A program made the position numbers and the translations under genes. Of a stretch of DNA of 64,000 nt, positions 38,512 through 56,433 are shown piece after piece (within the stretch, counting starts at the first letter, position 1; each line of letters opens with the position of its first letter). The stretch is from an uncultured Actinomycetota bacterium (GTDB taxonomy: Bacteria; Actinomycetota; Actinomycetes; JAHEKZ01), in assembly GCA_963743915.1 (NCBI GenBank), contig CAVURN010000002.1, positions 64,001 through 128,000 of the forward strand. Reading direction: 5' to 3'. The notes under the pieces were generated by a model, which was not told where the DNA came from, ran no database searches, and saw only the letters and a program-made list of their open reading frames with translations.

Positions 38512-39353
38512 TGCGGGCGGCGGTCCTCGGGCATCCGATCGCCCACTCGCTGTCCCCCGTGCTCCACCGCCGCGCCTACGACGAGCTCGGGCTCGACTGG
38601 GACTACCAGGCCGTCGACCTCACGGCCGACCAGCTTCCCGGATTCCTCGACTCGCTCGACGCCACCTGGGTCGGCCTCTCGCTCACCATGCCGTTGAAGG
38701 AGGCGGTGCTGCCCCTGCTCGACGACGTCGAGCCCTGGGCGGCGGTCACTGCTGCGGTCAACACGGTGCTGCTCGCCGACGGTCGTCGGCAGGGCATCAA
38801 CACCGACGTCACCGGGCTCCGCGGCATCCTGCGGGACAGCGGGGCGGTCAGCGCACCTCGTGCCCTTGTCATCGGCGCCGGCGCGACCGCCCGCTCAGCG
38901 GTCGCCGCGCTCGCCGCCGAAGGTGCCGGCTCGGTGGCGGTCAGCGCGCGCCGGTCTGATGCGGTCGAGGACCTGCGCAGCCATCTGTCCGCGCTGTCCG
39001 ACGTGCTCGGGCGCCCGCGTCCGACGATCGACGCCGAGGTCTGGCCGCCCCGGCTCCACACGTGGGACGTGGTGATCAGCACGGTGCCCGCCCGGGCCTT
39101 CGACGACAGCGCGGAGCTTCCCAGCAAGCCCTCCGGCGTCCTGCTCGACGTCATCTACGACCCCTGGCCCACGCCGCTGGCCATCGGCTGGGAGCGTGCG
39201 GGTGGCCACGTCGTCGGCGGACTCGAGCTGCTGGTCCGGCAGGCGGTCGAGCAGGTCGCGCTGATGACCGGGCGGCGCCCCACTGCCGGGCTCATGCGCG
39301 CCGCGGGGGAGTCCGTCCTGCGGTCCCGGAGATTCGCTCAAGAGGAGCAGTGA
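38511..39353 (+). CDS. aroE: Shikimate dehydrogenase
   Basis: HSLSP, SLTMPLK, AVNT, NTD, GAGATA. Confidence 0.94.
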   Translation: MRAAVLGHPIAHSLSPVLHRRAYDELGLDWDYQAVDLTADQLPGFLDSLDATWVGLSLTMPLKEAVLPLLDDVEPWAAVTAAVNTVLLADGRRQGINTDVTGLRGILRDSGAVSAPRALVIGAGATARSAVAALAAEGAGSVAVSARRSDAVEDLRSHLSALSDVLGRPRPTIDAEVWPPRLHTWDVVISTVPARAFDDSAELPSKPSGVLLDVIYDPWPTPLAIGWERAGGHVVGGLELLVRQAVEQVALMTGRRPTAGLMRAAGESVLRSRRFAQEEQ

Positions 39354-39363
39354 CCCGGCCGAA
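39336..39363 (+). promoter_or_regulatory. sigma28/FliA/WhiG-type promoter P1 (Roadblock operon)
   Basis: GCTCAAG-N15-GCCGAA overlapping the aroE stop codon. Confidence 0.75.
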
Positions 39364-39437
39364 GCACCTTCAGAAGGTCCGGTGGGTGCTCTGGTGGGCC
39401 CCGGCGGACGACGCGGTTCGACCACTCGAGGTGCACC

Positions 39438-40174
39438 ATGTCAGACCCCTACGTCTCCGCCGTGAGCGGGGCTGCCGGACGTTCGACCCAGCTCGACCAG
39501 GTGCTGGGGACCCTGCTGCGTCAGGCACCGGACGTCGAGGCGGCTGCCGTGGTCTCGTTCGACGGCCTGCCCATGGCCTCGGCGTTGCCCGCCGGGATGG
39601 ACGAGGACCGAGTGGCCGCCATGTCGGCTGCCCTGCTCAGCCTCGGTGAACGTGCCGCCCAGGGCCTCGGTCGCGGCGACCTCTCGCAGGTCTACGTCGA
39701 GGGCGACTCGGGGACCGTCTTCCTGGTGAGCGCCGACGACGAGGCGGTTCTCGTCGCCGTGGCCCGGGCGGGGGCGAAGGTCGGCCTGATGCTCTTCGAG
39801 GTCAAGCAGGCCGCCGAGGCGGTCGCCACCGTGCTGCGGATCGAGGCGGACCCGCTTCCCCCGCTGGTGGTCGCCCCCACGGCCCCGCCGGTGCAGCAGC
39901 CCGTCCAGGAGCAGGTGCAGCAGCAGCCCACCCAGCAGGCCACGTGCCGCAGCCCGTCCAGGAGCAGGTGCAGGAGCAGCCGGTCCCCGTGGCCCAGACG
40001 GCGCACGACACCGACCCGCGATCGAACGGTCACGTGGCACCCGTGCCTCAGCCGACCCCCGCGCTCGAGCCGGACCCGCTCGGGGACCCGGTGCTGGAGT
40101 CCTCCTGGGACGCCGACCGGGCGCGGGACCGCCGTCCGGCGACCGTCGCCCCCGACGGGAGTGCCTGGTCCTAG
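39438..40174 (+). CDS. Roadblock/LC7 (MglB/CvnB-like) protein with Pro/Gln-rich tail, frameshift ~39940
   Basis: AAVVSFDGLPMAS, DRVAAMSAALLSLG, KVGLMLFE; duplicated QPVQEQVQ unit spaced 53 nt implies one lost base. Confidence 0.88.
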
Positions 40175-40239
40175 CCCGGGCTCCGGTGCCCGACCCCCTG
40201 ACCCCCGCCCGCACCTGTACCCGAGGAACGTGAACTGAC

Positions 40240-41469
40240 GTGAAGCTCGAAGGTTCGCTCGACGCCTTCAGTCTTCCGGACGTCTTCCAGCTGCTCAGCC
40301 TGACGAAGAAGTCCGGGGGACTTCACCTGACCAACGGTCAGGTCTCAGGCGTGGTGTATTTCGCCGGAGGCGCCGTGACCGGCGCCTCGTCCGACGCTTC
40401 CCGCCAGGCGCTGGCACGGCGCCTGGTCGGCCTGGGGGCAGCCGACGACGCGGCCCTACGGCGCGCCGTGGAGCGTGCGGCCGCGGACGGTGCCGGTGTG
40501 ACGCGGGCACTCGTCGAGGCCGGCGCCGTCGATCCCTCCGTCGTCCAGCGTCTGGCGCTCCAGCAGGTGGTCGATGCGGTGTTCGACCTGCTCCGGTGGC
40601 CGAACGGGGACTTCTCCTTCGCCATGGGCGAGGAGAACCCCGACGAGGTCGGCCTCTCGGTGCCCGCCGACCAGGTCGTCGGTGAGGCGGCCGCGCGTCG
40701 GGAGAGCTGGGAGTCGCTGTCCCGGCTGATCCCGAGCCCGGACGTGGTGCTCACCATGCCCGTGGTCGTGCCCGAAGGCACCACCGTCGCCCAGGACGAG
40801 TGGGCGCTGCTCTCCCTCGTCGACGGGGTGCGTCCCGTGGGTGAGCTCGTGGACGTCTCCGGGGCGGGACAGTTCGCAGTCGTCTCGACGCTCGGGGCGC
40901 TCCTGCAGCGGGGGCTGCTGGCGATCCGGGACGAGGAGTCCCCCGACCACATCGCGCTGGTCCGGCGGCGGCAGCAGCTGCTCGCCCCGCTGGAAGGCGG
41001 AGCCGAGGCGCCACCTGAGCCGGCCATGCCCGCCGCGGTGCCCTCCACCGATCCTGCCCCCCTCCCTTCAGGCCCGGTCGGCACCGTCGGCCTGCCCGCC
41101 TCACCTACCGCAGCCGCGGCCGCACCCCCGGCCGCCCCGGCGACCGCGCCGCTGGCCCCGGCAGCGTCCGCCGATCCCGGCGTCCTCCCGGGTGCGCACG
41201 ACCCCGCGGGCGTCGTGCCGCCCCGTCCTGAGCCGTTCCTGCCCAGACGCGAGGTCGACCACCCGGAGCCGGCCCGCGCGCCGTCCTTCGGAGCGCCCTC
41301 GGCAGGAGGGGCTCCTGTCTCGCCGCCGCTCACCGCACCGGCGGGTGCCACCGGCACCGTGGGCACGGCCACCGCAGCCCAGCCGGTGGCCGAGAGCGCC
41401 ATCGAACGTGATCCGACCGTCAACCGCAGCCTGATGCTGCGTCTCATCGCCGGTGTGCGGGGGCTCTAG
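40240..41469 (+). CDS. DUF4388 (PATAN) protein with degenerate MshEN-like insert, winged-helix and CvnC-like C-terminal helix
   Basis: LEGSLDAFSLPDVFQLL..KKSGGL; LLRWPNGDFSF; EWALLSLVDG.RPVGEL; ends NRSLMLRLIAGVRGL. Confidence 0.8.
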   Translation: MKLEGSLDAFSLPDVFQLLSLTKKSGGLHLTNGQVSGVVYFAGGAVTGASSDASRQALARRLVGLGAADDAALRRAVERAAADGAGVTRALVEAGAVDPSVVQRLALQQVVDAVFDLLRWPNGDFSFAMGEENPDEVGLSVPADQVVGEAAARRESWESLSRLIPSPDVVLTMPVVVPEGTTVAQDEWALLSLVDGVRPVGELVDVSGAGQFAVVSTLGALLQRGLLAIRDEESPDHIALVRRRQQLLAPLEGGAEAPPEPAMPAAVPSTDPAPLPSGPVGTVGLPASPTAAAAAPPAAPATAPLAPAASADPGVLPGAHDPAGVVPPRPEPFLPRREVDHPEPARAPSFGAPSAGGAPVSPPLTAPAGATGTVGTATAAQPVAESAIERDPTVNRSLMLRLIAGVRGL

Positions 41470-42045
41470 ATGGCAACGAAGCAGCGACGCAGGCACGGTG
41501 GACAGGCCGTCAAGGTCGTCATCACCGGGCCGTTCGCGGCCGGAAAGACCACCCTGATCCGGACGATCAGCGAGATCACCGTGCTCTCGACCGAGCGTGG
41601 TATCTCCGACCACACCCGGAGCCGCAAGAACGAGACCACGGTCGCGATGGACTTCGGCCGGATCACCATCGACCGCGAGCTCGTGCTGTACCTGTTCGGA
41701 ACGCCCGGGCAGGAGCGGTTCGACTTCATGTGGGAGATCCTCGGCGAGGGCATGCTCGGCTACGTGCTGCTGCTCGACGCCAACCGGCCCGAGTCGCTCG
41801 CGGAGGCCGTCGGGATCCTCGACGCCTTCCGGCGGATGGCCCGCGTTCCCTTCGTCGTGGCCCTGAACCGGACCGAGGGTGTCGACGAGGTCGAGGAGGC
41901 CCGGATCCGTCAGGCGCTCTCGCTGGACGCGGCCGTGCCCCTGGTCCCGTGCGACGCCACCGACAAGGAGTCGGTCAAGGCAGTGCTGCTGGCCCTGCTG
42001 TACGCCGTGCTCGACGAGGTCGAGACCGCCAAGGCCGGGGTCTAG
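41470..42045 (+). CDS. Small Ras-like GTPase (MglA group/CvnD-like)
   Basis: GPFAAGKTT, TTVAMDFG, LFGTPGQERF, atypical G4 NRTE, CDA. Confidence 0.92.
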   Translation: MATKQRRRHGGQAVKVVITGPFAAGKTTLIRTISEITVLSTERGISDHTRSRKNETTVAMDFGRITIDRELVLYLFGTPGQERFDFMWEILGEGMLGYVLLLDANRPESLAEAVGILDAFRRMARVPFVVALNRTEGVDEVEEARIRQALSLDAAVPLVPCDATDKESVKAVLLALLYAVLDEVETAKAGV

Positions 42046-42057
42046 TCCGAGCCGGTC

Positions 42058-42336
42058 ATGCTGTGGACCAGGCGGCGTGTCCGCGAGCCGCGAGGACGAC
42101 ACCGGGCCGCGGCGACGACAGCCGTCCCGCCGGTCCCGGTCTCTCCCGTCCCGGTCCCAGCCGGCCGCCGTGCCAGCCGCCGCCCCGTCCTTGCGCCGCA
42201 CGTTCCCGCGTCGACCCCGGTCGAGCCTGGAAGCGGCGTCCACCTCGGCTTCGCCGACGGCTCGGCGCTGGAGCTGGGGTCGGGGGACCCGCGGGTCGGC
42301 GCGTTCCGCGCCGTCGCCCGGACCCTGCGCGGCTGA
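42058..42336 (+). CDS. Small hypothetical protein
   Basis: 92-aa ORF filling the GTPase-pilB gap; Pro-rich middle, C-terminal VHLGFADGS..L motif. Confidence 0.5.
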   Translation: MLWTRRRVREPRGRHRAAATTAVPPVPVSPVPVPAGRRASRRPVLAPHVPASTPVEPGSGVHLGFADGSALELGSGDPRVGAFRAVARTLRG

Positions 42337-42364: not shown

Positions 42365-42371
42365 CCCCGCG

Positions 42372-42398
42372 GCTCAAGGGAGCCGCGACGGCGCCGAT
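42372..42398 (+). promoter_or_regulatory. sigma28-type promoter P2 (pilB)
   Basis: GCTCAAG-N14-GCCGAT. Confidence 0.8.
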
Positions 42399-42467: not shown

Positions 42468-44135
42468 GTGAAGCAGCTGGGCGACATCCTGTTGCAGGAC
42501 GGTCTGGTCACCGAGGACCAGCTCTTTGCTGCGTTCCAGGAGCACAAGGAGCAGGGCAAGGCGCTGGGCCGGGTGCTCGTCGACCGTGGGTTCCTCACCG
42601 AGTCCCAGCTCGTCGCGGCCCTGGCCCAGCAGATCGGGCTCGAGTTCGTCGACCTGGCGGACTACCCGGTCGACGGCAGCATGATCGCCCGGGTGTCAGG
42701 GGCGATCTGCCGGAAGCACTCGGCGTTGCCGCTGCGGGCCGACGACGAGGGCAAGCTCATGCTCGCCATGGCCGACCCTGCGAACGTGTTCGCCATCGAC
42801 GACATCCGTTCCCTGACCGGGATGGACATCCGGCCGGTCGTGGCGACGCGCGCCGACGTGATCGCGGCCATCGACCGGTACTACCGGGCGGACTCGGAGA
42901 TCGACGACCTCACCGCGGCGATGGACAACGCCGACGACGACGAGGACCTGTCCAACCTCAAGGAGGTCGTCGAGGACGCCCCCATCGTCAGGTTCGTGAA
43001 CCTGCTGATCACGCAGGCGATCCAGGACCGCGCGTCCGACATCCACCTCGAACCGGGGGAGCACGCGCTGGTCGTGCGCTACCGGATCGACGGTGTCCTG
43101 AAAGACGTCATGAAGTCTCCGAAGAACATCCAGTCGGGCGTGATCAGCCGGCTGAAGATCATGTCGGACATCAACATCGCCGAGCGCCGGGTTCCGCAGG
43201 ACGGTCGGCTCTCGGTGACGCACCAGGGCAAGAAGATCGACCTCCGCGTGGCGACGTTGCCCACGGTCTGGGGCGAGAAGGTCGTCATGCGCATCCTGGA
43301 CAACTCGACGGCGCGGATGGAGCTGTCCGACCTCGGCTTCTCCGCCCTCAACTACGACATCTACTCGAAGAGCTTCATCAAGCCCTACGGGATGATCCTG
43401 GTGACCGGTCCCACCGGCTCCGGTAAGTCCACGACGCTCTATGCGACGCTGAACCAGATCGCGCGGCCCGAGGTCAACGTGATCACGGTGGAGGACCCGG
43501 TGGAGTACCGGCTCCCGGGCATCAACCAGGTGCAGACCAACGTCAAGGCAGGGCTGACGTTCGCGGCCGCCCTCCGGTCCATCCTGCGCTGTGACCCCGA
43601 CATCGTGCTGATCGGTGAGATCCGCGACCACGAGACGGCGCAGATCGCCGTCGAGGCGGCCCTGACCGGCCACCTGGTGCTCTCCACGCTGCACACCAAC
43701 GACGCCCCCTCGGCGGTCACCCGCCTGACCGAGATGGGTCTGGAACCGTTCCTCGTGGGCTCTGCCCTGGACTGCGTGCTCGCCCAGCGCCTGGCCCGCA
43801 GGCTCTGCAGCAAGTGCAAGGAGCCGTACGAGCCCTCGGCGGAGGCGCTGCTGACCGCCGGCTTCCCCTGGGAGGAAGGCACACCGCTGCCCACGCTGTA
43901 CCGCGCCGCTGGCTGCTCGGCCTGCTCCAAGACCGGGTACCGGGGTCGACTGGCCCTGCACGAGGTCATGGCGGTCTCCGAGACCATCGAGCGGCACGCC
44001 GTCGAGCACGCCTCAGCCACGGTCATCGCGCAGACAGCGAGGGACGAGGGCATGCGCACACTCCGCGATGACGGGATGCTGAAGGCCGCCGACGGGATCA
44101 CCACGATCGACGAGATCCTCCGCGTCGTCGTCTGA
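42468..44135 (+). CDS. pilB: Type IV pilus extension ATPase with N-terminal MshEN domain
   Basis: LGDILLQDG/LGRVLVDRG MshEN repeats, ASDIHLEP, PQDGR, GPTGSGKST, EDPVE, GEIRD, LHTND, CxxC...CxxC. Confidence 0.95.
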   Translation: MKQLGDILLQDGLVTEDQLFAAFQEHKEQGKALGRVLVDRGFLTESQLVAALAQQIGLEFVDLADYPVDGSMIARVSGAICRKHSALPLRADDEGKLMLAMADPANVFAIDDIRSLTGMDIRPVVATRADVIAAIDRYYRADSEIDDLTAAMDNADDDEDLSNLKEVVEDAPIVRFVNLLITQAIQDRASDIHLEPGEHALVVRYRIDGVLKDVMKSPKNIQSGVISRLKIMSDINIAERRVPQDGRLSVTHQGKKIDLRVATLPTVWGEKVVMRILDNSTARMELSDLGFSALNYDIYSKSFIKPYGMILVTGPTGSGKSTTLYATLNQIARPEVNVITVEDPVEYRLPGINQVQTNVKAGLTFAAALRSILRCDPDIVLIGEIRDHETAQIAVEAALTGHLVLSTLHTNDAPSAVTRLTEMGLEPFLVGSALDCVLAQRLARRLCSKCKEPYEPSAEALLTAGFPWEEGTPLPTLYRAAGCSACSKTGYRGRLALHEVMAVSETIERHAVEHASATVIAQTARDEGMRTLRDDGMLKAADGITTIDEILRVVV

Positions 44136-44179
44136 ACCAGCCACCGTTCGACCCGGTCGGACTAGTTCTCCTTGAGTCG

Positions 44180-44207
44180 GCTCAAGGGGTGACCCCCACA
44201 GGCCGAT
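44180..44207 (+). promoter_or_regulatory. sigma28-type promoter P3 (pilT-pilC)
   Basis: GCTCAAG-N15-GCCGAT. Confidence 0.8.
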
Positions 44208-44275
44208 GGTCGCTACAGGAGCACCACTGACGAGGTGGTGCACGTGGTGCGACGGCGCCCAAGGAGGCAACACTC

Positions 44276-45944
44276 GTGGAGACCACGAACTTCAGCGGCC
44301 CACCGCAGGGCGACGACGACGCGTCGGACGCCGGACGCGGCGAGGACCTCAACTTCTTCGCGCCGGCACCCGCGCCGACCACCGTCGCCGAACCGGCGGC
44401 TGAGCCTGCGCCTGAGCCCGAGTACCGCGCGGAGGCGGAGGCACCCGTCGAGTTCCAGCCCGAGCCGGTCTCCGAGCAGTCCGCCGAGCCTGCTCCGACC
44501 TTCGACCCCGGCGCTCTGGACGCCCCGAGTCTGCTCGCGCCGGAGGAGGTCGTGCCTGACGCCGGGTCCGGTCTGCCGATGTCGTTGGCGATCGCCGCAG
44601 AAGAGGCCGCCACGGTCGACGTCGAGAGCGCACCCGAACCCGCCGTCCTTCGACTACCAGGCCTTCATGGACCAGCCGGCCGATGCCGAGGCGGCTCCTG
44701 ACCCCGTCGAGACGGTGTCCGAAGCCGCACCGGTGGAGGAGGCAGCCGTCGACTACTCCGACCCGCAGCCGGCCCCCGTGGACTACGCGACCCCCGAGAC
44801 GATGGTCGAGCTCGCCGACTCAGAGGCCGAGGAGGCCGCGTACTCGCGCGTGACCACCGAGCCCACGCTGGGCGGCGAGGACATCGTCCTGGTCGACCTG
44901 CTGCTGCACATGCTGGAGATGGGCGCCTCCGACCTGCACATCACAGCGGGAGCACGCCCGGCGATCCGCGTCAACGGCGAGCTCTTCCAGATGGACGACT
45001 TCCCCGTCCTGACACCGCCGGTCATCCAGCGGGTCATGTACGCGGCGATCACGCAGCGCCAGCGGGAGATCTTCGAGGAGCAGCTCGAGCTCGACTTCGC
45101 CTACTCGGTCCCGGGGCGTGCGCGGTTCCGCGTCAACATGTACCGGCAGCGGGACTCGGTGGGTGCCGCTTTCCGCATCATCCCCTTCGAGATCAAGAAG
45201 CTCGAAGACCTGGGTGTCCCGCAGACGGTCGCCAACTTCGCCGCCCTGCCGCGTGGGTTCGTCCTCGTCACCGGTCCGACCGGTTCGGGCAAGTCCACCA
45301 CCCTGGCGTCGCTGCTCGACCTCGCGAACCGCACGCGCAAAGAGCACATCATGACGTGTGAGGACCCGATCGAGTTCCTCCACCGCCACCAGCAGTGCCT
45401 CGTGAACCAGCGTGAGGTGGGGGAGGACACCCACTCGTTCCAGAACGCGCTGAAGCACGTGCTGCGGCAGGACCCCGACATCATCCTGGTCGGTGAGATG
45501 CGTGACCTCGAGACCATCGGGGTCGCGCTGACCGCTGCAGAGACCGGTCACCTCGTCTACGCCACCCTGCACACGCAGGACGCGGCACAGACCATCGACC
45601 GTGTCATCGACGTCTTTCCTCCGCACCAGCAGCAGCAGGTTCGCGCGCAGCTCGCGCAGGCGATCCAGGGCGTGGTCTGCCAGACCCTGGCCCGGACGGC
45701 GGACGGCAAGGGCCGCGTGGTCGCCTGTGAGGTCATGGTGGCCACCCCGGCCATCCGGAACCTGATCCGTGAGGGAAAGACGCACCAGATCTACTCGGCC
45801 ATGCAGGCCGGCGCCAAGCACGGGATGCAGACCATGGACCAGCACCTGGCTGACCTGGTGAACAAGGGCCGGATCACGCACGAGACCGGCATCGAGAAGT
45901 GCCACCACATCGAAGACTTCAACCGGCTCACCGGCCGCGCCTGA
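44276..45944 (+). CDS. pilT: Type IV pilus retraction ATPase with ~200-aa acidic/Pro-rich N-terminal extension (frameshift ~44640)
   Basis: RBS AAGGAGG; ASDLH, RFRVN, GPTGSGKSTT, EDPIE, QREVG, GEMRD, AIRNLIRE. Confidence 0.94.
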
Positions 45945-45958
45945 CGGGAGCGTCACAC

Positions 45959-47342: not shown

Positions 47343-47416
47343 ATTCCTCTCTCCGGAGGGGATCACCCAAGGGCGAGCGCCGCACGGCTCACCGAACAGT
47401 GGGAAAGGGAACACAG

Positions 47417-47821: not shown

Positions 47822-47858
47822 CCTGAGCACGAAGCGGTGCAAGCTGCCGCACTCACGA

Positions 47859-47890
47859 CGAGGGGCCCGTACTCCGGTACGGGCCCCTCG
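47859..47890 (+). terminator. Stem-loop terminator after pilin 1
   Basis: CGAGGGGCCCGTAC-TCCG-GTACGGGCCCCTCG, 14-bp perfect stem. Confidence 0.8.
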
Positions 47891-48022
47891 TTCGTCGTCG
47901 AGCCTGCGCTTCGTTCACCCGATCGGGCGTACCGGGTGCACAGCGTCCGGTATCCGAAACACAGAGAGCACACATTGTCATGCGTCTCGACCGGTCGGGA
48001 CCGAGCCACCACGGAGGGGGAG

Positions 48023-48508
48023 ATGCACCGAAGACAACGAGCCGGCCCTTGCCGCCGGCCCCACCACAACTGCATCAAGTGTCGTGAGCATCCCGAGAGC
48101 GGGTTCACGTTGATCGAGCTGCTGGTCGTCATCATCATCATCGGCATCCTGGCGGCCATCGCGATCCCGGTCTTCCTGAGCCAACGGGCCAAGGCCCACG
48201 AGGGTGCGGCCAAGACCGACATCAGAACCTGGCCACGCAGCAGGAGCTCTACCTGACCGAGAACCAGACGTACGGCGCCATCGCGACCCTGAGTCGCCGA
48301 CGGGATGGACATCCGGGTCGGTCCGAGGACATCACGCTGTCGGTGGTGCGCTTCGACACCGCGAACGTCCTTCTGCCTGTCGGCGTCGCACGCCGCTCCG
48401 GGGACGACGTTCTACTACGACAGCGCGGCTGGCGGACTGCAGCCCTCGGGATCGGCCGGCTGCCCGGTGACGGTCGCCGGGGCAGCCGGTGACTCCATCA
48501 CCGGCTGA
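48023..48508 (+). CDS. Second major-type pilin with Cys/His-rich leader (frameshifted)
   Basis: RBS GGAGG; SG|FTLIELLVVIIIIGILAAIAIPVFL; C-terminal FCLSA...YYDS...GCP. Confidence 0.8.
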
Positions 48509-48519: not shown

Positions 48520-48560
48520 GCGTGAGCCGGGGCCGACGATCCGTCGACCCCGGCTCACGC
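48520..48560 (+). terminator. Stem-loop after pilin 2
   Basis: GCGTGAGCCGGGG ... CCCCGGCTCACGC 13-bp stem. Confidence 0.65.
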
Positions 48561-48585
48561 TCAAGACCGGTCCCTTCCTGCCGAT
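48559..48585 (+). promoter_or_regulatory. sigma28-type promoter P5 (minor pilins)
   Basis: GCTCAAG-N14-GCCGAT(AG). Confidence 0.8.
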
Positions 48586-50244: not shown

Positions 50245-50879
50245 CGATGAGCCGCTTGCATGCAGCCCGGCAGACGCTGGTTGACCGGACGTCGCCCCAG
50301 GGTCGGGTGGACGCGGGCTTCACCCTGCCCGAGATGCTCGTCTCCATGATCATCATGGGCGATCTTCGGCACCCTGGCGGTCTTCGCTTGATCTCGGTCA
50401 ACGAGACCTTCCGGGTGACCGACGACGAGGCGACGGGCCTGGCAGACACACGGACCGTGGTCGAGCGGCTGGGACGTGACATCCGGGCGGCCCGCGGCGT
50501 GGACGCAGGGGCCACCGAGAGCACTCTGGTGCTGTGGGTGGACTACAACTCGGACTACATCCGCAGCCCGAGCGCCCAGCCGGACGAGATCGTGACGTGG
50601 TCGCTGGTGAGCCAGGGTTCGGGAAGCACGCAGTACAACACGCTGCGTTCGACTGCGGGTGGTACCGCGGTGGTGCAGGCCCGCACCCTCGTCTCCGACC
50701 TCGCGTTCTGCTACCAGAGCGAGCACGACCGCGCCCTGCTTCACGACTCCGCTGTCGGTCGCGGACGCGGAGGACACCCGACTCGTCACGGTCGACCTCG
50801 ACGTACGACTCGCTGGTCGTCCTCTGGCGGGGACGAGCGAACCACGTCGTTCTCCGAGCGGATCAGGAATGTGAGCTGA
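50241..50879 (+). CDS. Minor pilin (PilW-like)
   Basis: AG|FTLPEMLVSM, LGRDIRAA, C-terminal RIRN. Confidence 0.78.
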   Translation: MTMSRLHAARQTLVDRTSPQGRVDAGFTLPEMLVSMIIMGDLRHPGGLRLISVNETFRVTDDEATGLADTRTVVERLGRDIRAARGVDAGATESTLVLWVDYNSDYIRSPSAQPDEIVTWSLVSQGSGSTQYNTLRSTAGGTAVVQARTLVSDLAFCYQSEHDRALLHDSAVGRGRGGHPTRHGRPRRTTRWSSSGGDERTTSFSERIRNVS

Positions 50880-50880
50880 C

Positions 50881-52293
50881 ATGAACCGACGAAGTGCCTG
50901 CTGCGGCGACTCCGGGCCGAGGACGAGGGCATCGGTCTCATCCTGGTCATCGGACTGAGCGCGGTCATGGCGATCCTGATCACGGTCATGACGACCGTGG
51001 CCATCCGTTCCCTGAACTCGAGCAGCGACCACGTCCGGTTCGAGCAGTCGCTGGCAGCGGCCGAGGCCGGGATCGACCGCGAGCTGGCCAACATCCAGAC
51101 CGCCCGCAACCAGGTGCCACCGGTCGCCTACACCGGTACCGCCGGGTGCGTGCCCTCGGCGGCGCCGGCCGGGACGTTCTCGTCCGAGGCGAGCGAGAAG
51201 GCATGGGCGCGCACGGCGCTCGAGGCGCTCCCGACCTCGTGCACCGAGAGCAACGGAGAGGGCGAGTTCGTGGCCTTCAAGGATCCGGCGCGCCAGGTGG
51301 TGTACTCCCTGGGCTGGTCACCGGAGCGCTCGGCGGCGAATGCCAAGAGCCGGCTGCTGAAGGCCGAGTACATCTTCGCTCCCTTCCGGCCGGGTCAGGC
51401 GATCCTCACCGGCTGGTGACCTCGACTTCTCCGGGTCGGTCGCGGTGAACGCGATCGCGGGGCTGCCGGCAGACATCCACACGAACTCCAACGTCATCGG
51501 GATCAACAACAGCGTGAGCGCGACCGGTTCCCTCACTGCGTCGGGAACCCTCTCCGGCTGCTCGAGCGGCGTCGTCGGCGGCTGCACCGCGGGTCAGCCG
51601 CAGGAGCGGGTGCCGGTGGCGAACCCGCGCGCGGTCTACCAGGACTACGCGCTGACGACCTCCGCAGTGGTTCGACCTCTGCCCCGACGGCACCGTGCGG
51701 TCACCGTCGGCCGACACCGCTGCCACCACCGACGGGCCCTGCACCGGCAGCCTGATCGCCAACAGCCCCTACAACAACTGGGTCTACACGGCGGGGAACG
51801 CCACGACACCGGGCAAGTGGGTGGTCGACAATGCAGCCACCCAGTACCCGGGTGTGTACTACGTGTACGGCGCCAACGCCCAGCTGGGAGACAACGGCAA
51901 CTCCAATGACAGCGTGACCCTCACCGTCCTCGCCGAGTCGACGACGCCCGTCGGGTTACACGAATGCCGCCACGTGCAACAAGTACGGCGGCGACATCAC
52001 CTGGAAGCTGTTCAACGTCCAGAACTACCTGCGCGGGACCCTCTTCATCGCGGAGGGCTCGTTCTACGGCAGTGCCAACTCGATCGGCGTCGGCCGGTGT
52101 CATGCTCGCCGGCGACAAGATCGACCTCAACACCTCGAGCGGTACGGTCACCGGATCCGTGATCGCCAACAACACCTGCGCGGCGGCGGGAGCGAACGAG
52201 ATCCAGGGCATGACGGTGACCTACGACCAGTCGGTCGAGGCCCCCGTCTACAGCGTGGTGAACACCACGCTGTGGCTGGAGTACGTGGGCTGA
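50881..52293 (+). CDS. PilX-like minor pilin with extended C-terminal domain, multiple frameshifts
   Basis: DEG|IGLILVIGL (no Glu5), LAAAEAGID motif. Confidence 0.7.
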
Positions 52294-52342: not shown

Positions 52343-53127
52343 GTGGAGATCTACTTCGGGGTGCTGCTCGCCGTCGTCGGCCTGCTCATCGGGTCGTTCC
52401 TCAACGTCGTCATCGCCCGCGTGCCGGCCGGGGAATCGGTGGTCAGCCCGCGCTCCCGCTGCCCTCGCTGCGGCACCGAGATCGCTGCGCGGGACAACAT
52501 CCCGGTGGTGTCCTGGCTGCTGCTGCGCGGGCGGTGCCGCTCGTGCGCGGAACCGATCTCGGTGCGCTACCCCTTGGTCGAGCTGGGCCACGCCGCCCTG
52601 TGGCTCGTCATGCTCGCGACGATCGGGTGGACCTGGGAGCTGCCTGCCTACCTCTACCTGGCCTCGGTGGGGCTGGCTCTGGCGGTCATCGACCTGGACA
52701 CCAAGCGGCTGCCCGACCCCCTGACCCTGCCGAGCTACGTGGTGGTCGGCCTGCTGCTGCTCCTTCCTGCGGTGGCCGACGGGGACTGGTCCGCCTACCT
52801 GCGGGCGTGGCTGGCGGCCGCCGCCCTGTTCGCCTTCTACTTCCTGCTCCTGGTCGTCTACCCCGGTGGGATGGGGTTCGGGGACGTGAAGCTGGCCGGC
52901 GTGCTGGGGCTGGCCCTCGGCTGGCTCGGGTGGGGAGTGCTCCTCGTGGGCGGCTTCCTGGGCTTCTTCCTCGGTGCCGTCGTCGGCGGCGCGCCTGATG
53001 CTCGTCCGGCGGGCGGGTCGGAAGTCGAAGATCCCGTTCGGCCCCTTCATGCTGCTCGGCACCCTGATCGGCGTCGCTGTGGGGCGAGCCGCTGTGGGAC
53101 GCCTACGTCTCCGCCATGGGTCTGTAG
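52343..53127 (+). CDS. pilD: Prepilin peptidase (A24), C-terminal frameshifts
   Basis: GSFLNVVI.R, CPRC...CRSC, YPLVE, AVIDL, MGFGDVKL, IPFGPF. Confidence 0.94.
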
Positions 53128-53158
53128 CACTCCCGGCCGACAAGAAATGTGAGTTAGC

Positions 53159-53186
53159 GCTCAAGGGCGGGGCCCGTCGCGCCGAT
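53159..53186 (+). promoter_or_regulatory. sigma28-type promoter P6 (pilMNO)
   Basis: GCTCAAG-N15-GCCGAT. Confidence 0.8.
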
Positions 53187-53258
53187 CATCCGGCAGACAT
53201 AGTCCAAAAGGACTCACCCACCTGGCGCAATGTCGCCGTCGGTGCGAAGGGGACAGAC

Positions 53259-54326
53259 GTGGCCGCACGAACCGCCATCGGCCTGGACATCGGCACGTCC
53301 GGCGTCCGGGCAGCCGAGCTCACGTTCGGCAAGTCAGGCATCACGCTCGACAAGTTCGGTCAGGTCGCGCTCCCTGAGGGCGCGGTCCGTGACGGCGAGG
53401 TCGTCCGACCGGCCGCCGTGGCCGAGGCGATCCGCCAGCTGTGGACGCACACCAAGTTCTCCGGCAAGGACGTCGTCGTCGGCGTCGCCAACCAGAAGGT
53501 GATCGTCCGCCAGCTCGACCTGCCGTGGCAGACGATGGACGAGCTGCGCAAGACGCTCCCGTACGCGCTGCCCGACGGCACCATCCCGATGTCCGTGGAC
53601 CAGGCGATCCTCGACTTCTACCCGCTCGACGAGCTCGCCTCGGACGACGGCACGCGGATGCTCCGCGGCCTGCTCGTGGCGGCGCAGCGCGACATGGTCG
53701 AGAAGCAGCTCGAGGCCGTGCACGCCGCCGGCCTCAAGCCGGTCATGGTCGACCTCACCGCCTTCGCCGTGCTGCGGTCGCTGGCCGAGAGCGACGACCT
53801 GGGCATGGGCAGCACCATGGAGGCCCTGGTCGACGTCGGTGCCCGCGTCACCAACATCATCGTCCACGAGGGTGGCATCCCGCGGTTCGTCCGCATCCTG
53901 CTGATGGGCGGCGCCGACGTCACCGACGCCCTCGCCGAGCGCACCGGCTCGGAGAACACCGAGGCCGAGGCCATGAAGCACGAGATGGGCATGACCACGG
54001 ACACCGGGGACGCGCGCGCGCAGGCTGCGGGTCGCGTCATGGAAGCAGCCGGCCAGGCGTTCATCGACCAGGTCCGTACCTCCCTGGACTACTACACCGC
54101 GTCCCCCGGCTCGCGTCCGATCGACCGGATCGTCCTGACGGGCGGAGGGTCGCGTCTCGTCGGCCTCGCCGAGCGGCTGCAGAACTCCACGCGGATCGAG
54201 GTCCAGCGCGGCACCGCCTTCGGCGAGCTCGCGATCGGCAAGACCGGCCTCAGCCGCGAACAGATGGAATTCGTCGAGCCCCTGGCCGCCGTGCCGGTCG
54301 GCCTCGCCCTGGGAGCTGCCTCATGA
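53259..54326 (+). CDS. pilM: Type IV pilus assembly protein PilM
   Basis: IGLDIGTS, VDVGA, LTGGGS.L.GL, VGLAL. Confidence 0.94.
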   Translation: MAARTAIGLDIGTSGVRAAELTFGKSGITLDKFGQVALPEGAVRDGEVVRPAAVAEAIRQLWTHTKFSGKDVVVGVANQKVIVRQLDLPWQTMDELRKTLPYALPDGTIPMSVDQAILDFYPLDELASDDGTRMLRGLLVAAQRDMVEKQLEAVHAAGLKPVMVDLTAFAVLRSLAESDDLGMGSTMEALVDVGARVTNIIVHEGGIPRFVRILLMGGADVTDALAERTGSENTEAEAMKHEMGMTTDTGDARAQAAGRVMEAAGQAFIDQVRTSLDYYTASPGSRPIDRIVLTGGGSRLVGLAERLQNSTRIEVQRGTAFGELAIGKTGLSREQMEFVEPLAAVPVGLALGAAS

Positions 54327-55018
54327 CCACCTTGACCCCCACCCGCCTGGCCGCGATGCCGCGGGTCAACCTGCTCCCGCCGGAGATCGCGGCTGCGGCC
54401 CGGCTGAAGCGGACCAAGGCGCTGCTCGGGTTCGTGATGCTCGCCGCCATGGCGGCCGTCGTCCTCGTCTACCTCGTCGTCAGCAGCCAGGTCGGCGGCG
54501 CCGAGGAGGAGCTCGCGACGGCCCAGGCGCAGGGCGCTGCCCTGCAGAGCCAGGTGAACGAGTACGCCGAGGTGCCGGAGGTCCTCGCGGCCGTCGACGC
54601 CGCGCAGGCCAACCTCACCACCGCGATGACGCCCGAGATCCGCTGGTCGTTCTACCTCAACGACCTGAGCCTCTCGATCCCCAAGACCACCCGTCTGGCC
54701 AGCATGACGGCGGTGAACACCGCGGCCGCCGCACAGCTCGACCCCGCGGCCGCGGCCCTGAACCCCTCGGTGACACCACTGGGTGAACCCACCATGGGCA
54801 CCGTCACCTTCACCGGCAGCGCGACGGACTTCGACGCGGTCGCGTCCTGGCTGCAGACGCTCGCTCGTCAGGAGGGCTACACCGAGCCCACCGTGACCAG
54901 CGTCCAGAAGTCCGACGCCGAGGACACCGTCGGTGAGTTCTACGAGGTCGAGACCTCCACCGCACTGACCCCTGAGGCGGCGTCCAACCGCTACCTCCAG
55001 ATCGCGACAGGTGAGTGA
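54323..55018 (+). CDS. pilN: Type IV pilus assembly protein PilN
   Basis: VNLLPP motif, TM helix, coiled coil, WS..L.DLS. Confidence 0.9.
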   Translation: MTTLTPTRLAAMPRVNLLPPEIAAAARLKRTKALLGFVMLAAMAAVVLVYLVVSSQVGGAEEELATAQAQGAALQSQVNEYAEVPEVLAAVDAAQANLTTAMTPEIRWSFYLNDLSLSIPKTTRLASMTAVNTAAAAQLDPAAAALNPSVTPLGEPTMGTVTFTGSATDFDAVASWLQTLARQEGYTEPTVTSVQKSDAEDTVGEFYEVETSTALTPEAASNRYLQIATGE

Positions 55019-55686
55019 CATGACCGTTTCCCGGAAATGGACCATGGGGACGGCCCTGGTGGCGCTCCTGGTGCTCGTCGCCGGCTGGTTCCTGCTCATC
55101 GCTCCCAAGCGGGGCGAGGTGGCGGACCTGCAGGCGCAGGCCGACGAGCAGCTGAGCACCAACAGCTCGCTGCAGATCCAGCTCGAGCAGCTCAAGCAGC
55201 AGAACAAGGACCTGCCCGAGAAGCAGGCCGAGCTCGCCGAGCTGCAGACCCGCATCCCGGAGACGCCCGACCTGACCGGCTACATCCGTGAGCTGCAGGA
55301 CATCGCTCGCCAGGCGGATGTCGGGCTGGTGTCGATGACGCCGGCGGCTGCTGTCACGTTGGGTCAGCCGGTCACCGAGCTCGGTGCGGGTCTGGCACCG
55401 GAGTCGCTGGCAGCGATCGACGTCGAGGTCGTCGTGGAAGGTGACTACACCGGCATCGAGCGCTTCTTCAACGAGATGGAGACGACCGAGCGCTACACCC
55501 TGGTGGGCGGCTACACGATCGCCGAGGTCGAGGACACCGAGGACACCAGCGGTGTCGCGGCGCCCGACGCTGACCGCCACGATCAACGCCCGCATCTACC
55601 TGGTTCCGACCACCCCCGAGGGCACCACGACCACCGCGCCCGCCACCGCGCCGACCCCGGCGCCGACCACGGCGACCGCCTCCTAG
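55011..55686 (+). CDS. pilO: Type IV pilus assembly protein PilO (frameshift ~55565)
   Basis: TM ending WFLLIAP, coiled coil, RIP..PD, V.G.Y..I..FF. Confidence 0.85.
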
Positions 55687-55694
55687 GAGCTCCG

Positions 55695-56381
55695 ATGTCA
55701 GACACCATTGCGCAAGAGCCCCTCGAGGGCCTGGACGACACCGCGAACGCCTCCGGCGGCAGCCGACGGCTCCTGATGCTGGTTGCGGGTGGCGCTGCGG
55801 TCCTCGTCCTCGCCCTGGCTGTGTACTTCCTGTTCCTGTCCGGTGGGGACGAGGAGGTGGCCGGCCCGGCCGCACCCGTTCCCGCGCCGACGGCGCCGGA
55901 GAAGACCGACAAAGGCGACAAGGACAAGGCCGGCTCCGACGTCCCCAAGGAGGTCGACGAGGACTTCGCCGTGGGGCGAGACCCGTTCCAGCCGCTCGCC
56001 GTCGAAGCCATCGTCGAGGAGGAGCCCGCGGTCACCGACACCGGCGACACCGGCACCGGTACCGACCCCGTGACCGACCCGGGCACTCCGGCACCGGCGC
56101 CCACCGTGGCACCGCAGCCGGCGCCGACCGTCGAACCGACCACCACCTACCAGGTGAAGCTCATCTCCGTCGACCTGGTCAAGGAGAAGGCCACCATCGC
56201 GGTGGACGGCAAGCGGTACGTGGTCGCCGTCCAGGTCACGTTCCCGAACACCAAGACCGGGCCGTTCCAGCTGACCAGCGTCGGGGAGCGCCCCTCGGGC
56301 AAGGACACCGCCACGGTGGTGTTCGGCTCCGACGCGCCCGTCGAGCTGGTCCAGCGGGACAAGGTGACGTTCGAGAACTGA
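55695..56381 (+). CDS. Bitopic membrane protein at the pilP position
   Basis: RBS AGGAG; TM helix, GRDPFQPL motif, Pro/Thr linker, small beta-rich C-terminal domain. Confidence 0.75.
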   Translation: MSDTIAQEPLEGLDDTANASGGSRRLLMLVAGGAAVLVLALAVYFLFLSGGDEEVAGPAAPVPAPTAPEKTDKGDKDKAGSDVPKEVDEDFAVGRDPFQPLAVEAIVEEEPAVTDTGDTGTGTDPVTDPGTPAPAPTVAPQPAPTVEPTTTYQVKLISVDLVKEKATIAVDGKRYVVAVQVTFPNTKTGPFQLTSVGERPSGKDTATVVFGSDAPVELVQRDKVTFEN

Positions 56382-56395
56382 ACACTCACTCCACA

Positions 56396-56433
56396 GCAGA
56401 CGGACGGCCCGCGCGAGCGGGCCGTCCGTCTGC
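56396..56433 (+). terminator. Stem-loop terminator closing the pilus locus
   Basis: GCAGACGGACGGCCCGC-GCGA-GCGGGCCGTCCGTCTGC 17-bp perfect stem. Confidence 0.8.

Follow-up and report, generated by a model that had tools for sequence, protein, structure and literature searches.

A putative small-GTPase signalling module at the head of a type IVa pilus gene cluster in an uncultured Actinomycetota bacterium

Introduction

Conservon-type G-protein systems are widespread in the Actinomycetota, but little is understood of their outputs or of what CvnC does. In the accessible portion of one study (PMC13343842), the CvnB homologue MfpD is described as a GAP and the CvnC homologue MfpC as a likely GEF. 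For the MglA/MglB pair, the available text of PMC6785124 reports that nucleotide exchange is promoted by the C-terminal helix of MglB, which binds MglA in its alpha5/beta2/beta2-beta3 pocket. The PATAN domain of Synechocystis binds the N-terminal domains of PilB1 and PilC, according to the part of bioRxiv 2021.06.11.447907 that is available. Neighbourhoods of GTPase, MglB and PATAN genes were catalogued in 2006 (Makarova et al.) and again in the accessible sections of Wuichet & Sogaard-Andersen 2014 (PMC4316618), and WhiG-controlled type IV pili in Actinomycetota have already been published, both for Rubrobacter (PMC8325347) and as predictions across the Actinomycetota (bioRxiv 10.64898/2026.01.14.699351).

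Here we describe a locus in which, as we consider reasonably probable, a small-GTPase signalling module of four genes stands at the head of a complete type IVa pilus cluster, is transcribed from the same WhiG (sigma-28 family) promoter type and works by the mechanism proposed below. The four genes probably form an on/off switch for the pilus motor that is built from known parts and is itself unstudied. That the parts, their co-occurrence (2006, 2014) and the WhiG control of actinobacterial pili are already known tempers the value of the finding. Its interest is that a single-copy conservon relative adjoins the type IV pilus motor, a target that is concrete and open to assay, and that it would show how Gram-positive actinobacteria regulate retractile pili, a little-studied matter.

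Four genes upstream of a complete pilus cluster

The window is the whole stretch of DNA that was analysed, 64,000 nucleotides from an uncultured Actinomycetota bacterium. Pfam annotation places the entire cluster on the + strand between aroE (38475-39353) and aroC (56469-57671), with mltG and aroE as the genes upstream of the Roadblock-PATAN-GTPase trio. The features are as follows (E-values from Pfam unless stated).

39336-39363, +, promoter-like site P1 (GCTCAAG-N15-GCCGAA), overlapping the aroE 3' end about 75 nt 5' of the Roadblock start
39438-40174, +, Roadblock/LC7 gene, CvnB-like (Robl_LC7 2e-18; ORF 39438-40238)
40240-41469, +, PATAN protein, 409 aa (DUF4388 4.8e-25)
41470-42045, +, small GTPase, 191 aa (ATP_bind_1/PF03029 7.5e-21)
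42058-42336, +, mini-ORF of 92 codons, GC3 0.86, between the GTPase gene and pilB
42372-42398, +, promoter-like site P2, before pilB (motif search)
42468-44135, +, pilB, assembly ATPase with an N-terminal MshEN domain (T2SSE 6.6e-138, MshEN 6.7e-24)
44180-44207, +, promoter-like site P3, before pilT (motif search)
44276-45944, +, pilT, retraction ATPase with an acidic N-terminal extension of about 190 aa (NCBIfam pilT_fam TIGR01420, 487 bits, cut-off 319)
45959-47179, +, pilC, platform protein (ORF 45899-47179; T2SSF 1e-67, two stretches)
47399-47716 and 48023-48256, +, two pilin genes with N-terminal methylation motifs (N_methyl 6.3e-8 and 2.4e-9)
48559-48585, +, promoter-like site P4, before the minor-pilin block (motif search)
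48621-52293, +, minor-pilin block (N_methyl in the ORFs at 48621 and 50241; remaining ORFs without a family)
52343-53152, +, pilD, prepilin peptidase (A24_N_bact 4e-35, Peptidase_A24 1.4e-14)
53159-53186, +, promoter-like site P5, before pilM (motif search)
53232-54326, +, pilM (PilM_2 2.2e-49)
54323-55018, +, pilN (PilN 7.2e-6)
from 55011, +, pilO (PilO 2.6e-4)
55695-56381, +, 228-aa ORF without a family, after pilO

The type IVa set is complete, with PilB, PilT, PilC, a prepilin peptidase, PilMNO and pilins bearing the N-methylation motif, the last numbering four in the cluster. Both ORFs of the pilin pair (47399-47716 and 48023-48256) appear shortened. Two genes carry apparent frameshifts, recognised by two-frame matches to single ORFs of relatives. 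One lies in pilT near 44634-44680, where Pfam finds T2SSE in an ORF at 44235-45944 and the corrected start is 44276, and the other in the Roadblock gene near 39940-39950. The Roadblock domain occupies 39438-39938 and is followed in another frame, from about 39950, by a P/Q-rich tail that ends ...DGSAWS; the true end of the gene is the stop at 40172-40174, and a C-terminal ...W(S/T/Q) recurs among relatives.

Like CvnB, the first product of the module is a Roadblock/LC7 protein, and among named structures it is nearest to CvnB5 (3leq, 2.8e-11), with 7f8m at 2.5e-22 and MglB chains at E-values of 0.42-0.69 in the same comparison with PDB sequences. NCBIfam has no family for either the Roadblock or the PATAN protein. 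The mini-ORF, without a family match in a Pfam search, has a conserved C-terminal stretch of about 35 residues and recurs at the same position in relatives, with up to 82% identity over 34 aa by tblastn; the N-terminus of pilB is likewise conserved in relatives.

A weak hint of expression comes from contigs in an RNA library. In one metatranscriptome run, near-identical contigs cover part of the Roadblock gene (39477-39853, 4 differences), the stretch where the GTPase gene meets the mini-ORF (41869-42114, 2 differences), and pilM, pilN and pilO; DNA carry-over is possible for all of them. This is a single run recorded as RNA and available as contigs, which shows the presence of sequence rather than transcript ends, strand or level, and runs X2-X4 are probably DNA.

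Promoter-like sites of the WhiG type

The motif GCTCAAG-N13-16-GCCGAW has five matches in the window, all on the + strand (39336, 42372, 44180, 48559 and 53159) and each preceding a transcription unit, against a mean of 0.01 over 100 shuffles, none of which reached five. The whole 2.9-Mb genome holds ten matches, so half of them lie here. By its sequence the motif is the published WhiG/sigma-28 promoter consensus: P1 fits CTCA-N16-17-GCCGA (bioRxiv 10.64898/2026.01.14.699351), and the features by which a WhiG/FliA regulon is recognised are present, namely a putative -35 of CTCA or T(A/C)AA, a spacer of 16-17, a putative -10 of GCCGA upstream of start codons and a cognate sigma factor, the genome encoding a FliA/WhiG protein at 284.5 bits against a cut-off of 189.6. 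Among 59 related loci, 29 also have a P1-type motif within 300 nt 5' of the Roadblock gene, and motif sites in related loci number 117 on the gene strand and 20 on the opposite one.

Elsewhere in the genome, the motif precedes GGDEF genes, a gene for a small membrane protein beside an NlpC/P60 protein, and a gene for a secreted protein. Such breadth would suit an alternative that we consider unlikely, in which the module acts on a target other than the pilus (envelope growth, division or another dispersal trait) and adjoins the pil genes through a shared WhiG regulon at an old aroE/aroC insertion site. The distribution of the module bears directly on this point.

Distribution of the module among Actinomycetota

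Our search of 300 genomes of the class found a GTPase orthologue in 109 (E<=7.7e-51) and a PilB orthologue in 151 (E<=1e-150), with both present in 100 among the matches listed. Of these 100 genomes, 94 have pilB on the contig and strand of the GTPase gene and downstream of it, within 1.5 kb in 65 and, with other DNA intervening, at 1.5-17 kb in 29; in the remaining six the two genes are on different contigs, and the opposite strand occurs in none. The PATAN gene is directly 5' of the GTPase gene in all of the best 30 loci, and the order mltG-aroE-Roadblock-PATAN-GTPase-pilB-pilT-pilC recurs in named loci from Actinomycetes, Nitriliruptorales and Geothermincolia-type MAGs. When loci were grouped for tree building, 48 in addition to the window had pilB within 9 kb and the PATAN gene within 4.5 kb. 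The module is thus common, heading pil genes in about a third of the class.

The sequence-only reading had placed the Roadblock, DUF4388/PATAN and small-GTPase genes 5' of pilB-pilT-pilC-pilins-pilD-pilMNO on one strand, and had noted the same type of motif before the trio as before the pil genes; a lack of conservation of the trio beside pil genes was to count against it. The Pfam and NCBIfam gene calls and the five motif sites with those of related loci agree with it on both counts, and the neighbourhood survey shows the trio to be conserved beside pil genes.

These data argue against a non-pilus target, since wherever the GTPase gene and pilB share a contig the GTPase gene is upstream on the same strand, and only 9 of the 109 genomes with a GTPase orthologue lack a listed PilB, most of them being incomplete assemblies. 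The adjacency of PATAN gene and pilB also persists where the GTPase is absent. A sample of the phylum has a listed pilB at most 7 kb downstream on the same strand in 60 of 94 genomes with a PATAN-protein match, including genomes without a pil-type GTPase, such as G003 (no GTPase match) and G176 (conservon-level matches only). In favour of a non-pilus target, the Chloroflexota carry the same trio with no adjoining pil genes in the fetched flanks, and 49 of the 151 PilB-bearing genomes yield no orthologue of the GTPase at the threshold applied. In G097, the closest complete genome sampled, a reverse transcriptase and a transposase take the place expected for the trio. Together with those 49 genomes, G097 indicates that the module is dispensable for having pili.

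Phylogenetic placement of the GTPase

The GTPase has a G1 of GPFAAGKT, a G3 of FGTPGQ and a degenerate G4 (NRTE for NKxD), so that its guanine specificity is not assured; G4 is degenerate in most Actinomycetes orthologues as well. Q81, the intrinsic catalytic Gln of G3 and a feature expected of MglA, is invariant in 36 of 36 aligned sequences, as is Gly77 at the Asp position of DxxGQ. NCBIfam gave only small_GTP, just below its cut-off (41.6 against 42.5). The description of the system as MglAB-type stands at the superfamily level and not as a close likeness, MglA being absent from the five PDB matches of the GTPase at E<=0.001.

As the sequence-only reading had it, the gene order is the B-C-D of the conservons and no kinase is present: a CvnA-type kinase is not upstream, where mltG and aroE are found instead, while the true conservons fetched for comparison do have a NIT-HAMP-HATPase kinase. 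The match runs gene by gene, from the cvnB5-like Roadblock protein through a CvnC-like winged helix and tail to a GTPase that is 39-51% identical to CvnD with the common G3 signature FGTPGQ, and all three genes of the trio appear from their sequences to be related to CvnB, CvnC and CvnD.

Such likeness could be taken to mean that the module is a degenerate CvnA-D remnant, a conservon that has lost its kinase, which we regard as very improbable. In a quick tree, the 19 CvnD sequences group in a single clade (SH-aLRT 100) with a long stem (1.38), to which neither the window GTPase nor any other pil-linked GTPase belongs. Derivation from a conservon, as implied by the first description of the module as a kinase-less conservon, is therefore not supported. 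Further, the monophyly of pil-linked actinobacterial GTPases was not rejected by the AU test (p-AU 0.687), the Chloroflexota have a kinase-less trio that likewise bears PATAN, and Pfam did not detect DUF742 (PF05331) in the PATAN protein, whose only Pfam family is DUF4388. The genome encodes one Roadblock protein, one DUF4388 protein and one PF03029 GTPase and thus contains no conservon. The quick tree puts CvnD within a polytomy among the actinobacterial pil-linked GTPases and, given the AU result, both a nested and a sister placement of CvnD fit the data, with more than one possible order of events; the root is uncertain because the outgroup rows are long.

Architecture of the PATAN protein

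The PATAN protein consists of a PATAN/DUF4388 domain (residues ~1-160), a winged helix (162-230), a disordered linker (~253-390) and a C-terminal helix (394-406; ...NRSLMLRLIAGVRGL) in a tail that is conserved among relatives. Its AF2 model has pLDDT >90 for about residues 1-250. Foldseek of the model against the PDB gave no match at E<=0.001, and the matches of a further structure search were dominated by the winged helix rather than the PATAN core (residues 1-160).

Residues 162-230 also match MarR, Lrp/AsnC and ArsR-type DNA-binding domains (Z ~5.6-6.7). The module might then be a regulator of transcription, with the winged helix binding DNA and the GTPase cycle controlling the expression of pil or other genes rather than the motor, and the altered gene expression of Streptomyces conservon mutants in the accessible part of PMC13343842 fits this idea. 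We nevertheless find it quite unlikely. Structurally, the winged helix is matched best by those of GATOR1 and SEA (Z 9.4 and 8.3), regulators of Rag GTPases in which it does not bind DNA, the pil units already have sigma-factor promoters of their own, and the Synechocystis PATAN domains that bind PilB1 and PilC are membrane-localised, the authors arguing against DNA binding in the available text of bioRxiv 2021.06.11.447907.

Action on the pilus motor, the reading that we prefer, draws on the likeness to CvnC. The winged helix aligned with the CvnC profile (hhalign E 5.5e-4, probability 30%), and the C-terminal motif G-phi-[RKS]-x-phi, which among the 4,967 ORFs of the genome ends only the PATAN protein, ends 10 of 12 CvnC sequences, with close variants in the other two. 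The idea that the C gene had gained a PATAN domain found no support: the Chloroflexota carry the same Roadblock-PATAN-GTPase trio with PATAN in place, which makes it more likely that PATAN is ancestral and that CvnC is a shortened form.

A possible switch for the pilus motor

A contact between the GTPase and the DUF4388 protein, suggested at the outset as a subject for structure prediction, was returned by our modelling. The PATAN-protein tail and the GTPase scored 0.65, the best of three controls scored 0.00, and the score fell to 0.00 once the GTPase was replaced. The confidently predicted interface sets PATAN-protein residues 387-409 on GTPase residues 12, 14, 65-73, 89-97, 122-127 and 166-188, with runs agreeing in at least 26% of contacts and partner pLDDT of at least 64. 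Of 80 solved complexes 58 reach the mark applied, as do 2 of 110 mismatched pairs. The alignments supplied lay outside the calibration of this mark, and the solved MglA-MglB helix complex may account for part of the pass. In a three-protein prediction, PilB residues 1-170 made no confident contact with the PATAN protein.

We propose that the GTPase would alternate between GTP and GDP states, with the Roadblock protein as its putative GAP, like MfpD/CvnB and MglB. The CvnC-like part of the PATAN protein would act on the nucleotide state, possibly as a GEF, its C-terminal helix being predicted to dock at the GTPase face that matches the MglB-helix site on MglA. The PATAN domain may then relay the signal to PilB and/or PilC of the motor and so govern the timing or the site of pilus assembly; the output might be polarity or reversal, as the sequence-only reading had it, or a simple on/off decision. 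It is homologues alone that suggest the GAP and GEF roles and the action of PATAN on PilB/PilC, and every functional role of the module members is borrowed in this way.

A broader proposal, which we offer tentatively and consider doubtful, is that the pil-linked Roadblock/PATAN-CvnC/GTPase(/mini-protein) cassette is an older actinobacterial G-protein system from which conservons were derived by duplication, PATAN loss and kinase gain. Its direct output would be the pilus motor, and its C protein would be both an exchange factor, through the C-terminal helix on the GTPase allosteric face, and an adaptor, through PATAN on PilB or PilC. If true, this would give a monoderm phylum a type IV pilus steered by a G protein, and the long-enigmatic CvnC family a mechanism. 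The pairing of PATAN, which binds PilB and PilC in cyanobacteria, with a CvnC-like helix predicted on the GTPase offers a direct route to testing how CvnB/C/D-type proteins work.

Discussion

The locus resembles the WhiG regulons of PMC8325347 and bioRxiv 10.64898/2026.01.14.699351 in its several GCCGA-type promoters within the pil cluster and in the c-di-GMP enzyme genes that share the motif. It differs in that the exact RsiG c-di-GMP motif (E-x3-S-x2-R-x3-Q-x3-D) occurs in no ORF and a search of the genome for flagellin (PF00669) gave no match; with a genome 90% complete and a strict RsiG pattern, the absence of neither is thereby shown. The terms "Roadblock", "GTPase" and "pilB" do not occur in the main text of either study, nor "DUF4388" in that of the preprint.

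With the conservons (CvnA-CvnB-CvnC-CvnD; AGPS, Mfp) the module shares a Roadblock protein, a winged-helix protein with the same C-terminal helix motif and a PF03029 FGTPGQ GTPase, all in the same order. It lacks the CvnA kinase, its GTPase falls outside the CvnD clade, and it is present as one copy per genome beside pilB whereas conservons occur as many scattered copies.

Our literature search, which covered openly accessible main texts, found no explicit description of a pil-linked Roadblock-DUF4388-GTPase module. A close account is that of MglA-family (Group 1/5) neighbourhoods, in which genes for a small GTPase, a Roadblock/MglB-like protein and PATAN occur together, and Group 5 is reported from the Actinobacteria, Chloroflexi and Aquificae, the phyla of the relatives found here, an agreement by phyla only (PMC4316618, accessible text). 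That text has GTPases "occasionally" near PATAN and names no pilus linkage, whereas the window trio has a fixed order, a fourth gene and, across roughly one third of the class, a tie to pilB.

MglA/MglB of Myxococcus xanthus and Thermus thermophilus also comprise a Ras-like GTPase and a Roadblock partner linked to type IV pili, and a C-terminal helix is here predicted to occupy the alpha5/beta2-beta3 face, the counterpart of the MglA surface that the MglB helix binds. However, the sequences are distant, the docking helix belongs to the PATAN protein rather than the Roadblock protein, and mglAB of Myxococcus is not encoded beside pil genes according to the same portion of PMC4316618. Finally, the PatA-type PATAN-REC regulators of cyanobacteria (PixE, PixG, LsiR) likewise have a PATAN/DUF4388 domain through which the signal probably reaches PilB and PilC; their input arrives through a phosphorylated receiver domain, whereas here it would come from a GTPase cycle acting through the CvnC-like module.

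A Roadblock-PATAN-GTPase cassette heads the pilus cluster

Between aroE and pilB, the source genome (G000, with the window at C2:64001-128000; 2.92 Mb in 5 contigs, 70% G+C, 90% complete) carries a trio of genes encoding a Roadblock protein, a DUF4388 (PATAN) protein and a small GTPase, followed by a fourth, very short gene. Profile matches (Pfam and NCBIfam) showed the gene list of the sequence-only reading to be correct, with all genes on the + strand:

37426-38511, +, mltG
38475-39353, +, aroE
from 39438, +, Roadblock gene (Pfam)
40240-41469, +, DUF4388/PATAN gene (Pfam)
41470-42045, +, PF03029 small-GTPase gene (Pfam)
42058-42336, +, mini-ORF of 92 codons (fourth gene)
42468-44135, +, pilB
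to 45944, +, pilT
to 47179, +, pilC
between pilC and pilD, +, two pilins, then the minor-pilin block
52343-53152, +, pilD
after pilD, +, pilM, pilN and pilO
55695-56381, +, ORF of 228 aa without a Pfam family, last of the pil block
56469-57671, +, aroC

The mini-ORF has a conserved C-terminal stretch of ~35 residues and occupies the same position in many relatives (at most 82% identity over 34 aa). The 228-aa ORF has one predicted membrane helix and a middle portion rich in proline and acidic residues. Two genes, Roadblock (near 39940-39950) and pilT (near 44634-44680), require two frames to match the single ORFs of relatives, and the pilin ORFs (47399-48256) appear cut short. Since related long-contig MAGs show comparable breaks, including in the PATAN gene, indels introduced during assembly most likely explain them. 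One metatranscriptome run yielded near-identical contigs covering the Roadblock gene, the GTPase/mini-ORF junction, pilM, pilN and pilO, such contigs being no proof of transcription.

We searched for the cassette in 300 other genomes of the same class and in a phylum sample of 300 genomes, mostly from other classes; the counts for both include unpublished genomes, and no claim rests solely on those. A single strong GTPase orthologue (E ≤ 7.7e-51; full-length matches with 62-94% identity) was found in 109 of the 300 class genomes, 5 further genomes had conservon-level GTPase matches only (E ~1e-43 to 1e-45), and 151 had a PilB orthologue (E ≤ 1e-150). Both proteins are among the listed coordinates for 100 class genomes: in 94, the GTPase gene is followed by pilB on its own contig and strand (within 1.5 kb in 65, at 1.5-17 kb in 29), the two genes are on separate contigs in 6, and none has them on opposite strands. 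In the 29 genomes with the wider spacing, the interval consists of other DNA. In nine class genomes the GTPase comes with no PilB among the listed matches; one of the nine is G480, whose entry in the genome table holds a PilB at 6.6e-152, and 49 have PilB without the GTPase. Among the best 30 loci, that of the window included, the PATAN gene is immediately upstream of the GTPase gene in every case, and pilB starts inside the 1.5-kb flank in 24.

In the phylum sample, 94 genomes have a match to the PATAN protein, 220 a PilB-like match (E ≤ 1e-60) and 47 a GTPase match at a threshold (at least 148.9 bits) above every conservon-type match. A listed pilB lies at most 7 kb downstream of the PATAN gene on the same strand in 60 of the 94; among the remaining PATAN genomes, pilB is just upstream in 2 and on another contig in 16, and no PilB is among the matches listed for 14. 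Several genomes show PATAN-pilB adjacency without a pil-type GTPase, for instance G003, with no GTPase match, and G176, with conservon-level matches elsewhere only.

The order mltG-aroE-Roadblock-PATAN-GTPase-pilB-pilT-pilC recurs across 80 named loci from public species genomes, nearly all MAGs, which are labeled Nanopelagicales, Sporichthyaceae, Frankiales, Mycobacteriales, Motilibacteraceae, Acidothermus, Nitriliruptorales and 'Candidatus Solincola'. Chloroflexota loci (Chloroflexia, Roseiflexus, Oscillochloridaceae) also have Roadblock-PATAN-GTPase, with no pil genes in the fetched flanks. The closest complete genome in the phylum sample (G097; PilB 73% identical) has a reverse transcriptase and a DDE transposase between aroE and pilB, at the expected cassette position (7215-9716 of locus L139, G097:C1:1250000-1268000), and a normal conservon elsewhere. 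In five Geothermincolia-type MAGs (loci L080, L082, L083, L088 and L089), the PATAN protein has the same head and tail at a length of 1,080-1,270 aa, two Roadblock genes lie upstream, and aroE sits between the GTPase gene and pilB.

These data show that the cassette is real, conserved and widespread. The observation that the trio lies upstream of the pil genes is confirmed.

The cassette shares a WhiG-type promoter motif with the pil genes

The motif GCTCAAG-N13-16-GCCGAW has five sites in the window, all on the + strand, compared with a mean of 0.01 over 100 shuffles, none of which reached five. These sites precede the Roadblock gene, pilB, pilT, the minor-pilin block and pilM. The whole genome holds 10 sites; elsewhere the motif precedes a GAF-GGDEF gene, a gene for a secreted protein and one for a small membrane protein, after which a coiled-coil NlpC/P60 protein is encoded, and a looser form (CTCAA) precedes a TadE-like pilus gene and a GGDEF-EAL gene (motif and looser sites at G000:C1:348426, C3:285187 (-), C2:488450 (-), C3:359139 (-) and C5:81884). 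Taken together, the sites look like a WhiG regulon of pili and c-di-GMP turnover.

The PilB N-terminus is conserved and of the MshEN type, the type that binds c-di-GMP. Within this domain (42468-42650), two tandem LG..L....G.L....L...L..Q-type repeats are strongly conserved across relatives. PilT has an acidic, proline-rich N-terminal extension of ~190 aa (44276-44850) that is retained in three related loci (L040, L043 and L046) and includes the conserved stretch …LPMSL.IAAEEAATVDVE…; it is possible that this extension is a regulator docking site.

By its sequence, the motif belongs to a known promoter type of the sigma-28 family. According to a 2026 preprint (bioRxiv 10.64898/2026.01.14.699351), actinobacterial genomes have been scanned with CTCA-N16-17-GCCGA and T(A/C)AA-N16-GCCGA, and type IV pili are predicted to be under WhiG control in several families; GCTCAAG is compatible with both of these -35 forms (CTCA and T(A/C)AA). 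A 2021 study (PMC8325347) showed WhiG promoters within the Rubrobacter pil cluster and ahead of c-di-GMP enzyme genes. One sigma factor in the source genome exceeds the FliA/WhiG cut-off (284.5 bits vs 189.6). Across the 80 related loci, 29 of the 59 that were scorable have the motif no more than 300 nt ahead of the Roadblock gene and 11 of 52 have it upstream of pilB, with 117 sites on the gene strand against 20 on the opposite one. We place the trio in the predicted pil regulon because it shares the motif with the pil genes, here and in related loci. WhiG-type control of pili is itself already known biology.

The PATAN protein resembles CvnC and is predicted to contact the GTPase

An AlphaFold2 model of the PATAN protein (36-row alignment) shows a confident fold over approximately residues 1-250, in which a PATAN core bearing a helical insert leads into a winged helix, and beyond ~250 a disordered linker followed by a helix at 394-406. 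The best structural match of the winged helix (residues 162-230) was to GATOR1 (8fw5_B: Z 9.4, rmsd 2.6, 68 aligned), followed by SEA (Z 8.3), both Rag-GTPase regulators, and by MarR and Lrp types (Z ~6-6.7), but as these Z values are near those of unrelated models, only the winged-helix fold class is secure. When a profile of this region of the protein was compared with a profile of 12 CvnC proteins by hhalign, the winged helices aligned (E 5.5e-4, probability 30%, 54 columns). The C-terminal end of the protein (...NRSLMLRLIAGVRGL) is conserved in Actinomycetota, with a variant form in Chloroflexota, and by reading was present in 54 of 61 extracted PATAN ORFs, the others being broken or read-through. 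Ten of the 12 CvnC C-termini match G-phi-[RKS]-x-[LIC] and two are close variants; the same ending occurs in 1 of 4,967 long high-GC3 ORFs of the genome, the PATAN protein itself.

We predicted a complex in which the full-length PATAN protein, as the scored partner, was combined with the GTPase, GTP and PilB(1-170), alongside three controls, using our own alignments, which lie outside the calibration set; in the calibration, 58 of 80 solved complexes attained the score mark, as did 2 of 110 mismatched pairs. The complex scored 0.65 vs 0.00 for the best control, and 0.00 after the GTPase was replaced, with contact agreement between runs of at least 26% and partner pLDDT of at least 64. All confident contacts are between tail residues 387-409 and, on the GTPase, residues 12, 14, 65-73, 89-97, 122-127 and 166-188; in the usual small-GTPase topology these presumably fall in beta1, the beta2-beta3 hairpin and helix alpha5. 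In Myxococcus xanthus, the C-terminal helix of MglB promotes nucleotide exchange and binds MglA in a pocket made up of alpha5, beta2 and the beta2-beta3 loop (PMC6785124), and the score of our complex may partly reflect the solved MglA-MglB structure. In the model, the tail would dock on the GTPase at an MglB-helix-like face. A 2026 mBio study (PMC13343842) describes two regulators of the GTPase MfpB: a GAP, the CvnB homolog MfpD, and a likely GEF, the CvnC homolog MfpC. GAP and GEF roles of conservon proteins are also already known.

By analogy with cyanobacteria, the PATAN domain would pass a signal to the pilus (PilB/PilC). Synechocystis PATAN domains bind both PilB1 and PilC through the N-terminal domains of these two proteins, and DUF4388 fused to a PilB-type N-terminal domain exists (bioRxiv 2021.06.11.447907). 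In our phylum sample, PATAN adjoins pilB even where the GTPase is missing.

Relation to previous reports

PATAN genes have been reported near MglB/MglA homologs (Makarova 2006, as cited; Wuichet 2014, PMC4316618), and the cyanobacterial preprint repeats this proximity and asks whether PATAN has a conserved pilus role. In the searchable literature, supplementary tables excluded (Wuichet Table S2, preprint Table S4), we found neither the cassette described as a constant component of pilus clusters in actinobacteria nor the CvnC likeness of the middle protein or the tail-GTPase contact. The 2026 AGPS survey required cvnA synteny and would therefore have missed the cassette. Nothing in the cassette is surprising in kind.

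Relation to conservons and Mgl systems

Two of 19 fetched conservon loci were annotated by Pfam, and both encode, in this order, a NIT-HAMP-HATPase kinase, Robl_LC7, DUF742 and ATP_bind_1. In the source genome, Roadblock, DUF4388 and PF03029 each have exactly one match, and there is hence no canonical conservon. Against solved structures, the cassette Roadblock protein is far closer to CvnB5 (3leq, 2.8e-11) and Rv3364c (4.3e-10) than to MglB (0.42-0.69). Cassette Roadblock proteins (window 39950-40171; loci L040-L119) have long low-complexity tails of variable length that end in a conserved ...(S/G)xW(S/T/Q) in most Actinomycetota loci, an ending that the Chloroflexota versions lack.

The window GTPase is 39-51% identical to CvnD proteins, and its G3 signature, FGTPGQ, recurs in these and in the Chloroflexota proteins; MglA is absent from its PDB matches at E ≤ 0.001. 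It retains G1, the G2 threonines and the G3 glutamine Q81, and at G4 it has NRTE in place of NKxD, like most Actinomycetes orthologs; among non-actinobacterial relatives, 22 of 24 keep NKQD. In a quick tree of 101 rows, calculated by maximum likelihood, all 19 CvnD rows group in a single clade (SH-aLRT 100) with a long stem (1.38), and this clade falls within a 77-row Actinomycetota clade (96), with Chloroflexota and Aquificota proteins outside. An AU test did not reject monophyly of all 58 non-CvnD actinobacterial rows (p 0.687). The tree and AU test indicate that the window GTPase is not a CvnD and place CvnD either beside the pil-linked group, as its sister, or within it.

The sequence-only reading had proposed a kinase-less conservon whose C gene gained a PATAN domain. 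Its observation is confirmed and its interpretation partly supported: the trio-pil linkage stands, as does the gene-by-gene B/C/D correspondence (Roadblock structures, CvnD identity, and the winged helix and C-terminal ending of CvnC), while derivation from a conservon and the gain of PATAN are not supported. The absence of a canonical conservon and the retained trio order agree with that proposal, but the GTPase lies outside the CvnD clade. It is the form with PATAN and no kinase that is shared with a second phylum, the Chloroflexota, and the direction was therefore probably the reverse, with PATAN lost in the CvnC line, though the root is uncertain. With members that correspond to CvnB, CvnC and CvnD, the cassette offers a tractable route to learning what such G-protein systems do.
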